From Candidatus Nealsonbacteria bacterium (GTDB taxonomy: Bacteria; Patescibacteriota; Minisyncoccia; Minisyncoccales; JAUWAW01), in contig JAUWAW010000001.1 in NCBI GenBank assembly GCA_030601865.1, positions 46,433 through 110,432 of the forward strand: DNA of 64,000 nt. The letters are read 5' to 3'. Below are positions 5,915-56,155 of the stretch, piece by piece (position 1 is the first letter of the stretch; every line of letters begins with the position of its first letter). A program made the position numbers and the translations under genes. The notes beneath the pieces are model-generated. The model worked only from the letters and a program-made list of their open reading frames with translations, was not told where the DNA came from and did no database searches.

Positions 5915-7455
5915 TCTCCCGCTATCAAGAGTGGTATCAATCTAAACAACCTCAAGAAGGTGTGCCGACCATCCATGTTGATGAAGTGGCCTCTAAGGTG
6001 GCTGCTTTTTATGAGAGAATCAGAGAGGTAGTGGATTGGAAAGAAGAACATCTGATGAGAAGAGCGGCCATAAGCAGGATGGTCAAAAGAAGGTTGCTTT
6101 TGGGCGAAAACCACCAGGATATGGCTGAATCCTTAATAATGGAATTAATCAGAGGAGGACACTTTCCTAACGATAAAATTGAAGAAAACAAGATTGAAGA
6201 GGTGCAAAAAATAATTGATAAGTATAGATTTATTCTTAAAAAGAGTCCTAAACCGCCCAAGGAAAAATTAAAAATCCAACTTTACAACTGGATTTTGGGA
6301 ATTGCTGCTTGTGAGGTTGAAGAAGCCTTGTCACCTCCCCTGAGAGAAAGAGCCCTGATGAATTATATGACTAAATTGATGCAGGAAAGAATTAGAATCA
6401 GCCAAGGAATTCTTGTCATCGGAGGGATGACAGAAGAAGAAAAAAATATCCAAACATATATCGCAGTGCAGCGGGCTTTATTTAAATTAGACGCGCCCCT
6501 TATCAGTTATAATCTTTTTAAAAAAAGATACCCTAACTACTATAGTGAGAACATTTACTCTGTTTGGGAAAGTGTAGAAAATGACTTAAACCATCCTCTG
6601 GCTGACAAGTTCTATAGAATCTGCGAAAAATATGACACGGCTTATCTACTTTTAGGTGATGTTCTATCTAAAGACCCCATGGGAGTCCAAGAAAAAATCT
6701 CACAACCGGCGGTTTTAGAAAGCGCTATCAAAAATGCCTATAATCAACGACTCAGCACACTCAAATCTCGGCTCTCTCGAGCAGCTGTTTATGCCACTTT
6801 ATCTATATTTCTGACCAATATTGTCTCCCTTTTAGCAGTGGAGATTCCATTTACTTGTTATGTTACCGGCCATTTTAATTTTTGGGCCATTGGCGTAGAT
6901 ATCCTAGGCCCCACTTTTTTAATGGCCTTTTTAGTAGTAACCATTAGGCCTCCTAAAAAAGAAAATTTGACTCATGTAATAATGGAAACGATGAAAATTG
7001 CCTATCAAAAAGAGAGAAAAGACATTTATGAGATTAAAATTAGAAAAAAACGAGGAATTATTCTCAATTTTATTATCAGTCTTTTTTACTTTTTCAGTTT
7101 CTGTCTATCGGTTGGTTTAGTAATTTGGGGGCTTTATAAAGTGCATTTTCCCATACTTTCTTATCCTATTTTTGTTATCTTTATTTCCTTAATTGCCTTT
7201 GCTGGAGCTAAAATCAGAGAAAGAGCCAAAGAATTACATATTATAGAAAAGAAAGAAAGTATGCTCAATATCGTGCTTGATTTATTTTCTGTACCCATTG
7301 TCCATTTGGGAAAATGGTTGTCAATCCGCTGGAAAAAGTATAATGTTATCTCGGTTTTTTTCAGCGCCTTAATAGATATGCCCTTTTTGCTTTTTGTAGA
7401 ATTCTTAGAACAATGGAGATACTTTCTCAAAGAAAAGAAAGAAGAAATCCACTAA
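5881..7455 (+). CDS. Hypothetical protein with soluble N-terminal domain and C-terminal multi-TM region
   Basis: Long ORF with no family I can recognise. The C-terminal 200 aa are strongly hydrophobic (about 4 TM). The 5' end overlaps thrS by 34 nt, so the true start is probably an internal ATG. Confidence 0.45.
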   Translation: MPELSLQTQKLISRYQEWYQSKQPQEGVPTIHVDEVASKVAAFYERIREVVDWKEEHLMRRAAISRMVKRRLLLGENHQDMAESLIMELIRGGHFPNDKIEENKIEEVQKIIDKYRFILKKSPKPPKEKLKIQLYNWILGIAACEVEEALSPPLRERALMNYMTKLMQERIRISQGILVIGGMTEEEKNIQTYIAVQRALFKLDAPLISYNLFKKRYPNYYSENIYSVWESVENDLNHPLADKFYRICEKYDTAYLLLGDVLSKDPMGVQEKISQPAVLESAIKNAYNQRLSTLKSRLSRAAVYATLSIFLTNIVSLLAVEIPFTCYVTGHFNFWAIGVDILGPTFLMAFLVVTIRPPKKENLTHVIMETMKIAYQKERKDIYEIKIRKKRGIILNFIISLFYFFSFCLSVGLVIWGLYKVHFPILSYPIFVIFISLIAFAGAKIRERAKELHIIEKKESMLNIVLDLFSVPIVHLGKWLSIRWKKYNVISVFFSALIDMPFLLFVEFLEQWRYFLKEKKEEIH

Positions 7456-7460
7456 CCTAA

Positions 7461-9419
7461 ATGAAATATCATATTGTTACTTACGGCTGTCAAATGAATA
7501 AAAGCGACAGTGAGAGGATTGCTACACTATTAGAGAATAAAGGATATCAGCCCGCGAAAGATATTTCTCGGGCTGATTTGGTAGTAATTAATATGTGTTC
7601 TGTTCGCCAAAAACCGGTAGACAAAGCCAAAAACCAGATTGCTCGTCTCCGCAATAAAAAAATTATTTTAATAGGTTGTATTTTAGATGCTGACAAAAAA
7701 GAATTTGCAAAAATGGGAGTTAAAATCTGGAGAGGTCTGACCTCTGCAAAACTTGCAGAGGTCAGACCTCTAACTGGTTTTGTGCCCATTATGAGAGGGT
7801 GTAATAATTTTTGTTCATACTGTGTTGTGCCTTACACTCGAGGGCCGGAAAAATATCGCAGTCAAAAAGAAATTATTGGCGAAGTTAAACATCTTCTTAA
7901 AAAAGGAATTAAAGAAATTACTTTGCTGGGTCAAAATGTCGATAGTTATAAATATAAACCACCACGGGATCCTTCGGCTTCGCCTCAGGATGATAACTCC
8001 GTTGTCAATTTTGTAAAATTACTTCAGAAAATTACTGTCTTGCCCGGCGATTTTAAGATTAAATTTATTACCAATCATCCCAAAGATTTTTCTGATGAAC
8101 TAATCGATGAGATTGCTCGGAATGACAAAATAATCAAATATGTTCACTTGCCAGTGCAGTCAGGTGATAATAAAATCTTAAAAAAGATGAACCGCAATTA
8201 TACTGGTGAGCAGTATTTGGCTTTGATTAAAAAAATTAAAAAGAAAATACCTAATGTTGACCTAACAACTGATATTATTGTTGGCTTTCCCGGTGAAACC
8301 GAAAAACAATTCCAAAAGACAGTTAACTTGTTTAAAAAGATTAAATTTGCTACCGCCTACATTGCCAAATACAGCCCCCGCCCCGGCACCGTTGCCTATA
8401 AACTAAAAGACAACGTCCCCCTCGCAGAAAAAAAGCGCCGAGAACAAACCCTGAGAAAATTAATACCTCCTACCCGTCATTCTGAGGCGAAGCCGAAGAA
8501 TCTCAACCAACGAGATCCTTCGGCTCGCTATCACTCGCCTCAGGATGACAATAACAAACTTATTGTTATTTTGGGGCCGACGGCTGTAGGGAAAACAGAG
8601 TTTTCAATAAAGCTGGCCAAAAAATTTAACGGCCAGGTGATTTCGGCTGACTCCCGTCAGGTCTATAAAGGAATGAACATCGGAACAGGTAAAATAAGCA
8701 AAAAAGAAAGGCAAGGTATCCCCCACTATCTTTTAGATATTGCCTCCCCCAGAAGAAGGTTTTCGGTTGCCCAATATCAAAAAAAGGCGATTGAAGTCAT
8801 AAACAAAATTTTAAAAAAGAAAAAAATCCCGTTTTTAGTAGGCGGAAGTCCTTTTTATATTTACTCTATTGTTGAGGGTTGGGTTTTTCCCAAAATGAAA
8901 GCCGACTTAAAACTGAGAAAAGAATTGGAAAAAAAATCAATTGAAGAACTTTTCAACATATTAAAAAAACTCTCTCCGCAGAGAGCCAAAACAATTGAAA
9001 AGAAAAACAAAAGACGGCTTATCAGGGCAATTGAGATTGCCAAGGCTTTAGGCAAAGTTTTGCCTCTGAAAAAAAATCCCCAATTTGATTGTTTGTTAAT
9101 AGGGATTAAACTAACAAAAGAAAAATTACAAAAAAAAGTTTCCCAAAGAGTTGATAAAATGATTGAATTAGGTCTTGAAAAAGAAGTAAAAAAATTATCT
9201 GAAAAATACGGCTTCAATTCTGTGTTGGGAGAAAGTATTGGCTACCAAGAATGGGAAAAAAGCGGCAGCCGGGCTGCCGCTGAAATAGCAGAGGAAATAA
9301 AATTTAATACTTATCATCTTGCCAAGCGGCAAATGACCTGGTTCAAAAAAGATAAAAGAATCCTTTGGGTTGAGAATTATAAACAAGCGGAAAATTTGAT
9401 CAAAAATTTCTTGGTATAA
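7461..9419 (+). CDS. miaB: Fusion protein: MiaB-like methylthiotransferase (MTTase N-domain + radical SAM, no TRAM) fused to MiaA tRNA dimethylallyltransferase
   Basis: N-terminus MKYHIVTYGCQMNKSDSE followed by the radical SAM motif GCNNFCSYCVVP. The C-terminal half has the MiaA P-loop LIVILGPTAVGKTEFSIKLA...ISADSRQVYKGMNIGT. The linker between the two halves is built from palindromic element sequence. Confidence 0.85.
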   Translation: MKYHIVTYGCQMNKSDSERIATLLENKGYQPAKDISRADLVVINMCSVRQKPVDKAKNQIARLRNKKIILIGCILDADKKEFAKMGVKIWRGLTSAKLAEVRPLTGFVPIMRGCNNFCSYCVVPYTRGPEKYRSQKEIIGEVKHLLKKGIKEITLLGQNVDSYKYKPPRDPSASPQDDNSVVNFVKLLQKITVLPGDFKIKFITNHPKDFSDELIDEIARNDKIIKYVHLPVQSGDNKILKKMNRNYTGEQYLALIKKIKKKIPNVDLTTDIIVGFPGETEKQFQKTVNLFKKIKFATAYIAKYSPRPGTVAYKLKDNVPLAEKKRREQTLRKLIPPTRHSEAKPKNLNQRDPSARYHSPQDDNNKLIVILGPTAVGKTEFSIKLAKKFNGQVISADSRQVYKGMNIGTGKISKKERQGIPHYLLDIASPRRRFSVAQYQKKAIEVINKILKKKKIPFLVGGSPFYIYSIVEGWVFPKMKADLKLRKELEKKSIEELFNILKKLSPQRAKTIEKKNKRRLIRAIEIAKALGKVLPLKKNPQFDCLLIGIKLTKEKLQKKVSQRVDKMIELGLEKEVKKLSEKYGFNSVLGESIGYQEWEKSGSRAAAEIAEEIKFNTYHLAKRQMTWFKKDKRILWVENYKQAENLIKNFLV

Positions 9420-12365: not shown

Positions 12366-13250
12366 TTAGTCGTGCCAGCCGTATTCGTCGGCTGACTCGT
12401 ATTCGTCGGCTGACTCTTGGTTTTCTTTCTCGACCTTTTTGATGAACAGCTTCTGGTCCTGTTCATAATCTAAGCCATTCTTGAGAGCTATTTCAGCCTT
12501 CTGAAGCTCCCGGCCCAAATACATAGCATGTTCCTTGGTCTGTTGGAAATCACCGATTAAGTCAAGATTGACTATTGTTTTACAAATACGTTCTGCTGAA
12601 TCTCCTGTTATTTTACATTTTAATTTATTGTCTTGGAAATGTTCAACGATTATCTTATTCCTTTCTTTATTAATTAAAACAACAAAGAATCCTTTTGGGT
12701 CAGGTATCCAGTCAGGGCAGGAATGAGCTTCTATTTCTGCTACTTTCTCAATTTTCAAAACCTTTGGAGAAAACTCGCTGGGTTTGGTTTGCAAAAGCTT
12801 ATCAATCACTTCTTCAATTTTCTTACCGTCCCTCTCACCTACCATATTGACAGGTGAAATCTGTTTTCTGAATTGTTCAATCAGTTCTTTATCAATACCT
12901 TTTAGATAGGACATATTGCCTTTGGCTCCGATAATCATTTTATCATTGTCTATACCGCTTTTTACAAGACATTCTATTGCTTGAGAGACAAAATGACCTT
13001 TGGAAATTTTCCCGCAAAGAATCAAATACCTGATATTGGGATTGGAAACTATGTTTTGGATTATTTTTTCTATGCCGATGTTCTCTGTAACACATTTACC
13101 CCAGATTGCTACTTTCTGAGGACTGATTTTTATTTCATCAATACTAGCATTAGTGCAAACAGCCACTGGCGAAATTTTATTGCCCACCTCGTATCTTCCC
13201 TGAACTGGCGGCCAATTTTGCAGCTTGCTTTCCATATTGATAAGTCGCAC
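12366..13250 (-). CDS. MtrA-like (tetrahydromethanopterin S-methyltransferase subunit A fold) protein with extra C-terminal domain and acidic ESADEY repeats
   Basis: PVAVCTNAS...AIWGKCVTENIGIEKIIQNIVSNPNIRYLILCGKISKGHFVSQAI matches my recollection of the MtrA/PF04208 signature, including the His in a GH motif. The annotated start is a GTG at 13250; an ATG at 13235 (MESKLQ) is an alternative. The C-terminal ESADEYESADEY comes from an 18-bp tandem repeat. Confidence 0.55.
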   Translation of the reverse strand: MRLINMESKLQNWPPVQGRYEVGNKISPVAVCTNASIDEIKISPQKVAIWGKCVTENIGIEKIIQNIVSNPNIRYLILCGKISKGHFVSQAIECLVKSGIDNDKMIIGAKGNMSYLKGIDKELIEQFRKQISPVNMVGERDGKKIEEVIDKLLQTKPSEFSPKVLKIEKVAEIEAHSCPDWIPDPKGFFVVLINKERNKIIVEHFQDNKLKCKITGDSAERICKTIVNLDLIGDFQQTKEHAMYLGRELQKAEIALKNGLDYEQDQKLFIKKVEKENQESADEYESADEYGWHD

Positions 13251-13864
13251 TAACAGTGCGACGGGTCTGTCGCACTGTTAGTGCGACAATTAGGCCTAAA
13301 TTCTTGGTTTATTTTGCTGGCTTGAGGAGATTCCTGTTTATCGTATTTCTGAGCTTTTTTTTCTGAATAGGAAACCTCGCAAGGACCAGAAAGCGTCTCA
13401 AAAGTCAAGGCGCAAACCCGCATCCCGGCATATAAAATAATGGGCATAATTCCCAAATTCCCCAATTCCATCACTGCTTTTCCCTGCCAACCAGGGTCAA
13501 AGCGAGCGGCGGTTGAATGAACTATCATTCCCAACCTACCCAAAGAACTTCTACCATCCAGTCTTGCCATTATATCATTGGGTAAAATTATTTCTTCTTT
13601 TGTTATAGCAATCACAAATTCTTTTGATTGCAAGATAAAAGGAGCTCCATCTTCTATTTTTACTTCCTCCATTAATTTTTCGAAATTGATATCTCTTTTA
13701 AGGTCTAAATAGGGATATTGAGAGGGCTTAAAAGTTTTAAAAATATTGCCTAAATGTAAATCTAAGGAACAAGGTCCTAATTGCTTTTCAAAATCGGGCT
13801 CAGGCTTGATTGTGATTTTTCCTTCCCTAATATATTTTTTTATGTCTTTGTCTGAGAGAATCAT
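13250..13864 (-). CDS. dcd: dCTP deaminase (Dcd/dUTPase superfamily) with palindrome-encoded C-terminal extension
   Basis: MILSDKDIKKYIREGKITIKPEP...LGPCSLDLHLGN matches the Dcd N-terminus. The last 13 aa or so (..RPNCRTNSATDPSHC) are encoded by the palindrome at 13244..13287. Confidence 0.8.
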   Translation of the reverse strand: MILSDKDIKKYIREGKITIKPEPDFEKQLGPCSLDLHLGNIFKTFKPSQYPYLDLKRDINFEKLMEEVKIEDGAPFILQSKEFVIAITKEEIILPNDIMARLDGRSSLGRLGMIVHSTAARFDPGWQGKAVMELGNLGIMPIILYAGMRVCALTFETLSGPCEVSYSEKKAQKYDKQESPQASKINQEFRPNCRTNSATDPSHC

Positions 13865-26770: not shown

Positions 26771-27403
26771 ATGGAACTCAAAAAACCTGACATCCGTTAT
26801 CTTAATAATATGAAAGAGGTACTTTGTGACCAGGAGTGGGCAAAAGATGCTCCTAATCTTGAGCTTTATTATATGTATCGCTACACAAAACGCGACGGCG
26901 CTTTGAGATATGACATTACTGAAATCCCATTTCAAATGTTAGGCAAAGAATATGTTAAAACAAAAGGCCACAGTCACGCAGGCGCCGAAACCTACGAGGT
27001 TTTACAAGGCAAAGCTATCTTCCTTCTCCAAAAATGTAACGAGAAAAAACCTGACGAGAAGACTTCTCGTCAGGTTGAGGATGTTTATGCGGTTGAGGTA
27101 AAAAGTGGTGATAAGGTATTTATTCCTGCTCATTACGGACATGTAACCATTAATCCCGGACCCGAAGACCTCAAAATGGCAAATTGGGTTTCCGACGCAT
27201 TCAAGTCAGATTATTCCCTTTATCTTGAAAAACAAGGCGCTTGCTATTACTGTATTAAAGGAAATCGGCCCCCATCACTCTGCAAGAGTGAGGGGGTAAA
27301 CTGGATTAAAAACGAAAATTATGGTAAAGTGCCAGAACTAAGATTTGAAAAGCCAAACAAAAATATTCCTGAAGATTTAAAGAAAGCTTTGATGGGAGAA
27401 TAA
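26771..27403 (+). CDS. Cupin-type (archaeal-type) glucose-6-phosphate isomerase-like protein
   Basis: The KTKGHSHAGAETYEVLQGKA motif resembles the metal-binding motif (TKGHYH..E.Y) of Pyrococcus-type cupin PGI. This is a recollection-level match. Confidence 0.5.
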   Translation: MELKKPDIRYLNNMKEVLCDQEWAKDAPNLELYYMYRYTKRDGALRYDITEIPFQMLGKEYVKTKGHSHAGAETYEVLQGKAIFLLQKCNEKKPDEKTSRQVEDVYAVEVKSGDKVFIPAHYGHVTINPGPEDLKMANWVSDAFKSDYSLYLEKQGACYYCIKGNRPPSLCKSEGVNWIKNENYGKVPELRFEKPNKNIPEDLKKALMGE

Positions 27404-30296: not shown

Positions 30297-30368
30297 TGCT
30301 TTGCTTGCCTTGTTTTTTCATCACTGAATAATCTCTAAGTATGTGCGGCAATGAAAGGAGAAGGTATA

Positions 30369-30842
30369 ATGGCTGATTGGACTGATTTTATCAAAGAACA
30401 AGAAAAAGCAATACAAGAATTCGTTGGCGAAGAGAAAGTCATCGTGGCTCTCTCTGGGTGTATGGACAGCTCACTAACTACTATGTTAGTCCATCATGCT
30501 CTAAAGAAAGACCAAGTTTCGATGATCACCATCGACGACGGACTCAGAAGGAAAGGCGAACCTCAATGGGTAGTCAACACCTTTGCCAGCTTAGGCATTA
30601 AAGTAGGAACTCTAATAGTGAATCCTAAGTGGCTATTTTCTTCCTTGGGTCAAGCCAGGAATCCAGAAGTGAAAAGAGCAAGGTTTCGCTCTTTCTTTTA
30701 CAAAACCCTTGCTAGTCACGCTGAAAAAACAGGAGCTAAGGTTCTCTTTCAGGGAACCAATAGGGCCGATGTCCAGGAGACGGTTGGTGGTGTTAAACTC
30801 CAACATAAAAAAGTAAATCATTCCCAATCCTCCTTAGGGTAA
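30369..30842 (+). CDS. PP-loop ATP pyrophosphatase fragment resembling the GMP synthase ATP-PPase domain (truncated; possible gene remnant)
   Basis: VIVALSGCMDSS (the SGGxDS variant) and VLFQGTNRADVQETVGG resemble GuaA, but the ORF stops before the dimerisation domain. The probable start is at 30369, preceded by AAAGGAGAAGG. Confidence 0.45.
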   Translation: MADWTDFIKEQEKAIQEFVGEEKVIVALSGCMDSSLTTMLVHHALKKDQVSMITIDDGLRRKGEPQWVVNTFASLGIKVGTLIVNPKWLFSSLGQARNPEVKRARFRSFFYKTLASHAEKTGAKVLFQGTNRADVQETVGGVKLQHKKVNHSQSSLG

Positions 30843-30903
30843 TATGATAAATTTCTCCATTGACAAATTCGTATCTTCGTTGAGGCATAAAGTTAGTTAA
30901 CAG

Positions 30904-30950
30904 CGTTCCGATCCCTGTAAAATTTACGGGGATCGGAACGTTGTTTTTTT
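30904..30950 (+). terminator. Rho-independent terminator (12-bp GC-rich stem CGTTCCGATCCC / GGGATCGGAACG followed by TTGTTTTTTT)
   Basis: Perfect stem, 13-nt loop and a T-run. Confidence 0.7.
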
Positions 30951-46997: not shown

Positions 46998-47028
46998 AAA
47001 ACTATCGAGAACTGTTCTCGATAGTTTT
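46998..47028. terminator. 31-bp palindrome AAAACTATCGAGAAC-T-GTTCTCGATAGTTTT abutting the lepA stop (family D variant)
   Basis: 15-bp perfect arms. Related to the in-frame CDS copies TACGAGAACAGTTCTCGTA. Confidence 0.55.
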
Positions 47029-48833: not shown

Positions 48834-50434
48834 TAATATTCTTCTTCAAAGATTTGGGCGGTGAAAGTGTAGAGGTCAATATCTTCTTCTTTCCAGCAGT
48901 CCCAGGGCAGACCGACTTTTTGAAAGCAAAGTTCTCCCATAAATTTTTCTAAATCCCAATTATTGTCAGTAGCTACTTGGGGCAGAAAAACACCATTTCT
49001 CAAGCCCTTTCTAATTTGCACGCCGTGTTTGCCAATCTCAATTCCCTGCCAATTATCAATTTTCTCTAAGGGACTCAAAACCGAAATTTCATAGTCAAGC
49101 TCACCAAGTTCATCCTCTCCCACAGGATAAAATCTTTTATCCTGGGTGGCAGCCGCAATGGCCATTTGAGAAACAACTTGATACAGAGGTATGTCAGTGG
49201 GTGAAAAACGGCCAATGCAGCCCCGTAGCTGGCTCTGCTTCTTTAAAGTAACAAAAGCACCCAAGTTTTGATTTAATATGGATTCTTCAACTTGAAATTC
49301 TGGAATTTTACCTTCTTTGACAAAAGTTTCAACTGAATTCTTAGCGATTTCCAAAAGTTTTTCTTGCTCTGTTTTCTTTAATAAATGACTCTGTCTTGGT
49401 CCAAAAAAGCCAATGGCTGCATAGCCAACCACTTGCGATTTATCACCTATGGGCACGTCTCCGGAATTGGCATATTTTAATAATTTAATTTCTTCAGCAG
49501 CCAATTCTTTGGCTACTAACATGATTGTTTTGATAGCATCTTCTGCGCAAACAAAAGTTACTGCTCCAGGAATATTCTCTTTTTCCAAGTCCTGAATTGT
49601 TTTTTCTAACTCCCCTACCCTACCGGTTAAAATGGCTTCAATGGTTTTGCTATCTGCCTGTTGAGCATCACCATAGCTAGGATAATGCGACAAATCAGAA
49701 CTGGCAATCAGTAAAATATTCTTACCTCTGATATTTTTAACAATGGCTTGAGCTAAAATTTTGTAATCTTCTTCTGGGCTGTTGCCCAAAATAATGGGTA
49801 CAATCCGTGGTACGTGCACGGACAAAGGAGATCCTTCGGCCTTCGGCCTCAGGATGACTTGCAAAAAAGGTAATTCCACCTCAAGGGAATGCTCTCTTTG
49901 ATGAACACTCTCTCTGAAAAAAATTCTTTCGTTTTCTGCAATAATTTTTTCAGCTAATTGAGAATCTATTTCTACTTCTCCTAAGGGAGTTTTATAAAAA
50001 CCTCGTGGGAAAATAGAAATACCTTCAAATCTCTCATAATGGCTGTTGCCAATAAGAATCACCGTAGCAAATTGGTTCAAATCGTGACGATCGTCATAAC
50101 TTGAACCACCCATCAGTTGCTTAAAGCCGTAGGCGGCCACGGGGCCAGAAAATGGATAGCCAGCATGGGGCAGAACTAAAGCAAAAATCTCGCCTTCGGT
50201 TTCTGGCGGACTTGCCTTTTCCAAAAATTGGTCAATCATTTTCTCTAACTCCTCAGGGTCTCCAGGATAAAATTGTCCAGCCACTGCCGGCTGCCGAATT
50301 ATTTTTTCTTCTTTTTCAAAAACGTCTGAAACCATAGCTTTTTGAGAAATATCTTCCCCTCCCTTAAATATTAAAAGTATACTAATCGCACCAACAACAA
50401 AAATTAATAAAGCTATTATTAGAACTTTCTTCAT
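48833..50434 (-). CDS. Fusion of AmmeMemoRadiSam system protein B (MEMO1-like) and protein A (AMMECR1 domain), with N-terminal signal/TM anchor
   Basis: MEMO-like motifs (ALVLPHAGYPFSGPVAAY; the SSDLSHY region) in the N-terminal half. The C-terminal half has the AMMECR1 motif GAFVTL...LRGCIG. Confidence 0.7.
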   Translation of the reverse strand: MKKVLIIALLIFVVGAISILLIFKGGEDISQKAMVSDVFEKEEKIIRQPAVAGQFYPGDPEELEKMIDQFLEKASPPETEGEIFALVLPHAGYPFSGPVAAYGFKQLMGGSSYDDRHDLNQFATVILIGNSHYERFEGISIFPRGFYKTPLGEVEIDSQLAEKIIAENERIFFRESVHQREHSLEVELPFLQVILRPKAEGSPLSVHVPRIVPIILGNSPEEDYKILAQAIVKNIRGKNILLIASSDLSHYPSYGDAQQADSKTIEAILTGRVGELEKTIQDLEKENIPGAVTFVCAEDAIKTIMLVAKELAAEEIKLLKYANSGDVPIGDKSQVVGYAAIGFFGPRQSHLLKKTEQEKLLEIAKNSVETFVKEGKIPEFQVEESILNQNLGAFVTLKKQSQLRGCIGRFSPTDIPLYQVVSQMAIAAATQDKRFYPVGEDELGELDYEISVLSPLEKIDNWQGIEIGKHGVQIRKGLRNGVFLPQVATDNNWDLEKFMGELCFQKVGLPWDCWKEEDIDLYTFTAQIFEEEY

Positions 50435-51609: not shown

Positions 51610-51645
51610 TGTGTCAAAATCCTGCGATCGCAGGATTTTGACACA
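51610..51645. terminator. 36-bp perfect palindrome TGTGTCAAAATCCTGCGATCGCAGGATTTTGACACA (family B copy), intergenic
   Basis: Perfectly self-complementary. The identical sequence occurs at 56120..56155, and an expanded variant lies inside mnmA. Confidence 0.6.
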
Positions 51646-56119: not shown

Positions 56120-56155
56120 TGTGTCAAAATCCTGCGATCGCAGGATTTTGACACA
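56120..56155. terminator. 36-bp perfect palindrome (family B copy) between dnaB and recR
   Basis: Identical to 51610..51645. Confidence 0.6.

Follow-up and report, generated by a model that had tools for sequence, protein, structure and literature searches.

A perfect hairpin is translated within miaB-miaA

How a flawless inverted repeat comes to be read in frame within a tRNA-modification gene is the question raised by positions 7731-7771 of a 64,000-nt stretch of DNA from a Candidatus Nealsonbacteria bacterium (contig JAUWAW010000001.1, positions 46,433 to 110,432 of the forward strand), hereafter the window, where a perfect hairpin lies in the miaB part of a miaB-miaA fusion gene. Our analysis indicates that this hairpin is most probably a doublet of repetitive extragenic palindrome (REP) units, namely a non-autonomous element resembling the REP doublet-forming hairpins (REPINs), tolerated as a 14-residue loop in a variable, stop-free linker, and that the unit family is, as judged by sequence, tied to genes like those of REP-associated tyrosine transposases (RAYTs) in other genomes of the Patescibacteria, or Candidate Phyla Radiation (CPR). 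The features concerned are as follows.

7461..9419, plus strand: host gene, a MiaB-MiaA fusion of 652 aa, its open reading frame (ORF) intact through the hairpin
7731..7771, plus strand: putative REP doublet, a REPIN-like hairpin of inverted palindromic units with the spacer GCAA-AAC-TTGC, read as RGLTSAKLAEVRPL (aa 91-104)
7731..7745, plus strand: putative REP unit 1, core AGAGGTC-T-GACCTCT with centre T at 7738, read as RGLTS
7757..7771, plus strand: putative REP unit 2, core AGAGGTC-A-GACCTCT with centre A at 7764, inverted relative to unit 1, read as (A)EVRPL

The two arms, AGAGGTCTGACCTCTGCAA at 7731-7749 and TTGCAGAGGTCAGACCTCT at 7753-7771, are complementary at 19 of 19 positions and enclose the loop AAC (7750-7752), confirming the 41-nt perfect hairpin with a 19-bp stem and a 3-nt loop that had been described in a first-pass annotation of the sequence; each arm also contains a palindrome of its own, a point absent from that annotation. 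Position 7731 is codon position 1 of the ORF 7461..9419(+), and the 41 nt plus one base encode the 14-residue peptide. The hairpin is far beyond chance expectation: perfect hairpins with a stem of at least 11 bp number 15 in the window versus 0-3 per dinucleotide shuffle (n = 30), and the longest perfect stem among these 30 shuffles was 14 bp versus 19 bp in miaB. RNA folding of its 81-nt context yielded −48.6 kcal/mol (shuffle mean −18.5, z = −9.27), and 0 of 200 shuffles folded as well. Nor is the hairpin an assembly artefact, because independent Logan assemblies of the same organism from other runs reproduced it identically, one contig (L085, SRR14872663) matching at 100% over 4226 nt and another (L086, SRR34846496) differing by 5 SNPs over 4221 nt, none of them in the hairpin. 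A further contig (L087, SRR34846495) terminates within the hairpin; de Bruijn assemblers tend to break at palindromes.

MiaB-MiaA fusions are common in Patescibacteria. The protein in the window comprises a UPF0004 domain (aa 2-85), a radical S-adenosylmethionine (SAM) domain (aa 108-290) and a complete MiaA (aa 367-639) and has no TRAM domain, and its radical-SAM box CNNFCSYC at 114-121 (C114, C118, C121) follows the hairpin-encoded peptide by ~10 residues. The placement given by the first-pass annotation, inside and in frame with the linker between the MiaB N-terminal and radical-SAM domains and upstream of the cysteine box, was thereby borne out. TRAM is missing from most Patescibacteria MiaB-MiaA fusions and is kept between the two enzymes in 5 of 120 matches listed (P0040, P0088, P0104, P0112 and P0116; 703-730 aa).

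Conservation of the peptide across orthologs, which that annotation had set against its own proposal, was not found: AEVRP, RGLTS, RGQTS and QRSDL occur in 0 of the 119 other MiaB-MiaA homologs among the matches listed. In our alignment A1, the closest orthologs (61-69% identity) read ...VEVKQ---FKGLAKIKPKT... versus ...VKIWRGLTSAKLAEVRPLT... in the window, so that the window linker is only 3 aa longer, not 14, and the right arm can loosely be aligned with LAKIKPK. An AlphaFold (AF2) model of the fusion, built on a 34-sequence alignment, had a mean pLDDT of 83.6, with values <50 at residues 92-95, in the stretch that joins the N-terminal and radical-SAM domains, both well folded; confidence was also low at residues 173-179 and 338-363, which correspond to the gene's other two palindromic elements (see below). 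The model fits the hairpin peptide being a low-confidence interdomain loop, that is, a permissive linker.

The hairpin belongs to a dispersed family of palindromic units

Searching for other copies, as the first-pass annotation had proposed, found the arm, the unit and the doublet layout in other genomes. The exact 19-nt arm was present at 17 loci in a species-representative genome set of 596 Gb, where ~4 would be expected by chance according to our own calculation, and 14 of the 17 lie in metagenome-assembled genomes (MAGs) labelled Patescibacteria/CPR. Seven loci came from one Kaiserbacteria MAG and four from one Paceibacterota MAG, carrying at least 11 and at least 9 units, respectively. 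The unit deduced from them is a palindrome of ~15-23 nt, (TTGC)AGAGGTC-W-GACCTCT(GCAA), with the common form (TT)GCAGAGGTC[A/T]GACCTCTGC(AA), also written AGAGGTCWGACCTCT.

A metagenome scan with the 19-nt unit returned 62 loci, of which ~20 high-GC matches were set aside from the family, the 'open frames' there being GC artefacts. These set-aside loci (L025, L027, L028, L032, L036-L038, L041, L042, L045 and others) represent one or two orthologous classical intrinsic terminators, GAAGCAGAGGTCAGACCTCTGCTTTTTTG, of a soil bacterium with a GC of 0.64-0.73, and the use of the 19-nt palindrome as a terminator in a high-GC bacterium is probably convergence. The low-GC matches have the core GAGGTC-W-GACCTC with variable stem length, some in terminator-like positions and some in genes. 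Many intergenic family members carry T-runs.

Inverted unit pairs, with centres A and T, are frequent, and their spacers differ in length (11-24 nt) and in sequence, also between pairs of the same genome. The tight 41-nt form, in which GCAA-NNN-TTGC (11 nt) separates the two units, was met again independently in L064, L007 and L030/L063, so the doublet itself looks like a propagating form. The flanks of the unit copies have no target-site duplication, no direct repeats and no conserved target motif, and with spacers differing in length and sequence and flanking direct repeats absent, the copies differ from miniature inverted-repeat transposable elements. None of GTAG, CTAC, CGTC and GACG was seen at or next to 7731-7771 or the copies flanking RAYT-like genes. 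A scan of viral contigs found 0 copies of the unit, and thus no evidence for phage carriage. At one locus (L003, 387-610), an intergenic stutter of repeated partial units CTGCAGAG(T)T lies between full AGAGGTCTAACCTCT units, which suggests slippage or abortive copying at palindromes.

The units accompany RAYT-like transposase genes

At L008, a locus fetched by the DNA motif alone, the ORF 1294-1977 encodes a Y1_Tnp protein (PF01797, 39.3 bits versus a cut-off of 23) with HUH and Tyr motifs, whose best NCBIfam model is 'REP-associated tyrosine transposase'. Eight more of the loci fetched by the motif encode homologs with 28-33% identity, among which at least five sequences are distinct, and a profile search added a RAYT-like fragment in L011. 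The N-H-x-H and Tyr motifs are invariant in the RAYT-like alignments A2 and A3, and NF047646 (RAYT) was the best model for 45 of the 45 aligned members (best E 3.5e-14), whereas the IS200 model matched none of the 45. The family, of ~240 aa, has at least 3085 homologs at E ≤ 1e-10, and the few named members are annotated 'transposase [Patescibacteria group bacterium]'. A PDB sequence search with the RAYT-like profile gave nothing significant, and the AlphaFold model of one member (P0176) was too poor for use (pLDDT 47.5). Palindromes flank these genes, and in several cases also lie inside them, as listed here.

L008: units at 1214/1243 and 1969/1999, around the RAYT-like gene 1294-1977
L001: units at 1831 (abutting the start codon) and 2558 (just past the stop), around the RAYT-like gene ~1850-2542
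L022: degenerate units on both sides of the RAYT-like gene; a perfect unit in frame inside the gene, 907-919
L040 group: a different palindrome, CCCGAGG-CCCGT-CCTCGGG, at the same three positions; in-gene copy at L040 6012-6030
L080: RAYT-like gene fetched by protein similarity; flanks GGGAGA-CCCGT-TCTCCC and its inverse
L082: RAYT-like gene fetched by protein similarity; GTAG-tagged flanking units; a perfect 19-bp hairpin in frame, 6187-6225
L083: RAYT-like gene fetched by protein similarity; degenerate AGAGGYCAGATCTCT flanking units; a perfect unit inside the gene, 1588-1622

The in-gene units of L022, L083, L082 and L040 always occupy the same variable loop and match the flanking palindrome, in L022 and L083 as its perfect version; REP units inside RAYT-like genes could reflect autoregulation or simply self-targeting. 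The RAYT-like genes of L080 and L081 lie in a common housekeeping neighbourhood beside FtsW, and one Paceibacterota contig carries two divergent RAYT-like copies (L001 and L009).

In the window, profile hmmsearch found no intact RAYT-like gene and detected a truncated relic, which a single-query RAYT tblastn had missed.

30796..30888, minus strand: truncated RAYT-like relic (hmmsearch with the A3 profile, 24.5 bits, E 6e-6)
30899..30945, no strand assigned: strong palindrome with 23-nt arms, 91%, 10 nt upstream of the relic ATG

The segment 30888-30808(-) encodes MPQRRYEFVNGEIYHITLRRIGNDLLF, the near-consensus first 27 aa of the family, followed by four codons and a stop. Since a RAYT relic stands behind a palindrome, the organism has, or had, such a system, and the arrangement suggests that a deletion removed most of a REP-RAYT unit at 30796-30945. 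The relic lies tail-to-tail with the ORF 30351..30842, a PP-loop/GuaA-like gene that is apparently also truncated.

In-frame copies in other genes and the GpsA site

The miaB copy is one of many units that are translated. The following genes, all confirmed by Pfam, contain an in-frame unit.

L002, L007: Mur ligases
L004: GatB
L013: MiaA
L016: UvrC
L019: acetyl-CoA synthetase (Acs)
L020: TsaD
L021/L055: GpsA
L064: RecO
L060: topoisomerase I (TopA)
L035: ComEA-like protein
L034/L044: LigB-family protein
L030: DeoR-HTH protein

The encoded peptides RGLTSA, RGQTSA, AEVRPL and QRSDLC are readings of one DNA in different frames; four reading frames are used by the in-frame units, and the sole frame with a TGA stop is never used. 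Open frames of at least 150 codons make up 83% of the bases of the low-GC loci but hold 22 of the 47 distinct exact units there, so the units are depleted in genes yet far from excluded. The GatB and MiaA of the window itself are without the element; compared with them, the Kaiserbacteria MiaA copy is a clean insertion of ~20 aa, and the Paceibacterota GatB copy occupies a variable loop with 5 additional aa.

The GpsA site was compared among 120 homologs (58-100% identity). About 90 of them are empty, reading LKLK-R-FK-N-LPPLLGIAKGIE, and one subclade has an additional 5-aa element, with a perfect KKCRGQTSA[DN]YP in some members and mutated copies in others (CTGLTGA, YIGLTCA, YTGLIRA, CRARSSV, CRGRTPA, YIGQAHV and CIGDTYI). 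At the DNA level, the empty AAA AAT TTT AAA GAC contrasts with the filled AAG AAA TGC AGA GGT CAG ACC TCT GCA GAT. Read from these alignments, a block arrived in an ancestrally empty loop and then persisted or decayed. The palindrome is still perfect in L091 (79% protein identity), a copy that had not been selected through the motif, and in two variants both bases of stem pair 5-17 have changed, giving C-G in one and a T.G wobble in the other, a hint that the stem changes could be structure-preserving. A different 11-aa insert (LPRTERSLVRD or LPRTEKSLGRG) occupies the same loop in P0275 and P0285, making the GpsA loop a recurrent insertion site.

A REP doublet as the probable explanation of the hairpin

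The first-pass annotation had taken the perfection of the repeat to imply recent insertion or active maintenance. This was the right class of explanation, because the hairpin belongs to a dispersed repeat family with RAYT-like transposases; the part that a recent insertion took place at miaB is not established. The annotation also overlooked the resemblance to known REP/REPIN doublets and the two further palindromic in-frame elements of the gene. By analogy with REP-RAYT and IS200/IS605 systems, REP elements would form hairpins when their DNA is single-stranded, and these may be cut and rejoined in trans by a RAYT, so that mobilisation of these units by RAYTs is inferred from characterised systems. 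A doublet would then have landed in, or come to occupy, the variable miaB interdomain linker in a stop-free frame, where it would be translated as a 14-residue flexible loop and tolerated; we infer both the neutrality and the timing of this event.

Several observations weigh against reading the hairpin as a REP doublet. The 64-kb window holds a single doublet of the AGAGGTC-W-GACCTCT unit, and its RAYT relic is truncated and stands behind a palindrome of a different REP type from the miaB unit. The unit is without the GTAG/CGTC tag of classical REPs, and the miaB copy, inside the ORF 7461..9419, departs from the extragenic location usual for a REP, to which intragenic REPs are documented exceptions (PMC3733652). 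Two RAYT-like members scored 38.8 and 24.8 bits, below the NCBIfam RAYT cut-off of 80 bits, and are therefore distant RAYT relatives. RAYTs with an identity of only ~27% share the same flanking unit, which is unusual, REP-RAYT pairs being normally lineage-specific. Lastly, a clean insertion at miaB is not demonstrable: with a closest ortholog of only 69% identity and a linker only 3 aa longer, neither an empty site nor boundaries can be drawn there.

The rival that survives best is that the hairpin, whatever its origin, is now functional, by slowing the ribosome between domains, by acting in mRNA stability or RNase III processing, or by a partial termination that uncouples MiaB from MiaA. Its very stable predicted RNA structure, its seat at a domain boundary, its unaltered state in the strain with five nearby SNPs and the two-sided stem changes in GpsA would all suit such a role, as would the perfect GpsA palindrome in lineages only 79% identical in protein, although the survival of perfect copies may partly reflect exact-match ascertainment. 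A simple terminator pattern scan also flags the hairpin, with the tail AACTGGTTTT; however, it stands 270 nt from the start of a 1959-nt ORF, and the T-run begins 6 nt past the stem, so that no U-tract directly abuts it. An Rfam scan returned sub-threshold matches only (20-30 bits versus gathering scores of 50-130). A present function is unlikely when the element also occurs between genes and, at varied positions, within unrelated genes, has decayed in many GpsA lineages, and is absent from the other MiaB-MiaA homologs among the matches listed.

The unit might instead be a conserved CPR protein-binding or uptake-type motif, such as an operator, a segregation or nucleoid site or an analogue of DNA-uptake sequences, that accumulates by mutation and recombination. 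Identity across class-level lineages would agree with this, and so would the frequent replacement of a native loop at small cost in length (5 aa in GatB, 3 aa in MiaB) and the palindromic pairs at terminator-like positions, which resemble Neisseria uptake-sequence pairs. One site in 64 kb is nevertheless far too low a density for an uptake signal; the tight physical link with Y1 transposase genes, the block appearance in GpsA and MiaA, and the different palindromes of the same design at different RAYT loci make this account quite improbable.

Template-switch mutations produce perfect hairpins within genes at a small net length change, and a local switch perfecting a quasi-palindrome, in which the right arm was copied inverted over the left as a private mutation, would match the alignment of the right arm LAEVRPL with LAKIKPK of the orthologs, the net gain of only 3 aa and the perfectly complementary arms. 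This origin was first favoured from alignment A1 and was dropped once the 19-mer was found at 17 other genome loci; with the 19-nt arm, the 15-nt units and the 41-nt doublet layout present in many genomes and genes and beside RAYT genes, independent origin of the identical sequence is implausible and the switch very improbable. The probability that the hairpin is a chimeric inverted repeat from assembly or amplification, which can indeed yield perfect inverted repeats and would fit the one Logan contig that breaks inside it, is practically negligible, since contigs L085 and L086, from different runs and one of them a strain variant, carry it identically and thereby refute the artefact, and it stands in frame with the gene intact downstream.

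A REP doublet tolerated in the miaB linker is thus retained. A bolder extension, which we hold to be rather unlikely, is a phylum-wide Patescibacteria REPIN-RAYT system whose hairpins are routinely translated in essential genes, including RAYT itself, with one REP kept identical across class-level lineages despite RAYTs only ~27% identical and with some stem changes keeping the pairing. If true, it would mean that REPINs pass horizontally from one CPR lineage to another or that the hairpins are under selection at the level of the host, for example for co-translational pausing where domains meet or for autoregulation of RAYT by its internal REP.

Other palindromes in the window

The miaB-miaA ORF contains two more GC-rich palindromic in-frame elements, at 7955-8000 and 8477-8550, of another family (GATCCTTCGGCTTCGCCTCAGGATGA plus its inverse), and similar GATCCTTCGGCTTCGCCTCAGGATGA-type motifs occur at 142-198 and near 49845. 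Orthologs lack the first, which encodes YKPPRDPSASPQDDNS. The second, an inverted repeat, supplies the entire linker between MiaB and MiaA, RHSEAKPKNLNQRDPSARYHSPQDDN, to which that of the homolog P0003 is similar; some relatives have TRAM in this place. The Logan contigs L084, L085 and L086 all end at 8476-8505, and three independent contigs ending there indicate a multi-copy repeat.

At 13244-13287, a perfect 19-bp hairpin that, as in miaB, consists of two palindromic units, GTCGCACT-AAC-AGTGCGAC and GTCGCACT-GTT-AGTGCGAC, spans the junction of the ORFs 13250..13864(-) and 12366..13250(-), with no copy in the fetched loci. A 36-nt perfect palindrome, TGTGTCAAAATCCTGCGA|TCGCAGGATTTTGACACA, occurs twice in identical form at 51610-51645 and 56120-56155; the two copies, each intergenic, lie 4.5 kb from one another on either side of a block with tRNA-Ala in it. 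Seven more perfect in-ORF, in-frame palindromes with stems of 11-15 bp lie at 27048, 33670, 40669, 40873, 47976, 54282 and 63543, and one at 46998 is intergenic. The core CGAGAA[CG]-N-[CG]TTCTCG is common to those at 27048, 40873 and 46998 and is possibly another repeat or operator family.

Implications

The flawless 19-bp stem in an essential tRNA-modification gene is read here as selfish DNA and not as a regulatory device, and on this explanation the miaB hairpin should not be annotated as a riboregulator or frameshift site. The tiny, gene-dense CPR genomes would accordingly be hosts of REP-RAYT-type elements, and with so little intergenic space available, about half of the copies found come to be translated as loops of proteins. 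These insertions make the proteins longer and can mislead the alignment of orthologs, and such palindromes break short-read assemblies, the contigs here ending at them. REP insertions also offer natural strain-typing markers and a test bed for ribosomes meeting very stable in-ORF hairpins.

Comparison with known systems

REP/REPIN-RAYT systems and intragenic REPs are already known, and what is new is their occurrence in Patescibacteria, as far as the searchable literature goes: our literature search found no paper linking RAYT, REPIN, REP or palindromic repeats to Patescibacteria/CPR. Three traits are unusual, namely the missing GTAG/CGTC tag, the one REP across class-level lineages and ~27%-identical RAYTs, and the in-frame REPs in RAYT genes.

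The hallmarks of REP-RAYT systems are short palindromes, inverted doublets that form hairpins, and flanked Y1 transposase genes (PMC3337134, PMC5581495), as described for REPINs and RAYTs by Bertels & Rainey 2011 (PMC3116915, PMC3337134) and Bertels et al. 2017 (PMC5581495); for mobilisation of single-stranded hairpins by RAYT, PMC3733652 and PMC3337134 summarise evidence from E. coli and Pseudomonas. Like REPINs, the CPR elements are short palindromic units with inverted doublets forming a long hairpin, present as singlets, doublets and clusters, and they flank Y1/HUH genes in housekeeping neighbourhoods (L080/L081 beside FtsW). They differ in the length of the doublet, 41 nt versus ~89 nt in the P. 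fluorescens REPIN (PMC3116915, PMC3337134), and in that the units are near-perfect palindromes with a single-base centre and without the GTAG tag. About half of the CPR copies found are intragenic and copy number appears low; one unit is common to class-level lineages and to RAYTs only ~27% identical, and the RAYT-like proteins are of ~240 aa, the two members with listed scores falling short of the curated RAYT cut-off.

Intragenic GTAG/CGTC REPs, as singles and dimers and many of them in replication/repair genes, were reported by Di Nocera et al. 2013 (PMC3733652) in Proteobacteria, Cyanobacteria, Chloroflexi, PVC and Rickettsia; they encode ~7-30 extra residues that were argued to occupy flexible linkers or loops (PMC3733652). 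The CPR copies in UvrC, RecO and TopA resemble them, and the low-pLDDT linker of miaB fits the same view (PMC3733652), whereas the Patescibacteria host, the missing GTAG/CGTC tag and the units inside the RAYT gene set them apart.

Template-switch mutations differ in being private to one locus, while the miaB sequence is common across genomes and genes.

The palindromic elements of Rickettsia (RPEs) are, in the summary that PMC3184786 gives of Ogata et al. 2000, Rickettsia-specific sequences of ~105-146 bp with no dedicated transposase known, and the same text presents BRE as another in-frame palindromic element. From that account, RPEs are likewise selfish palindromic repeats inserted in frame; they occur within essential genes, in a genome that is reduced and gene-dense, and their translation yields surface loops. 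The miaB element, at 41 nt, linked to RAYT-like genes and unrelated to the Rickettsia families so described, would therefore work alike without being a member.

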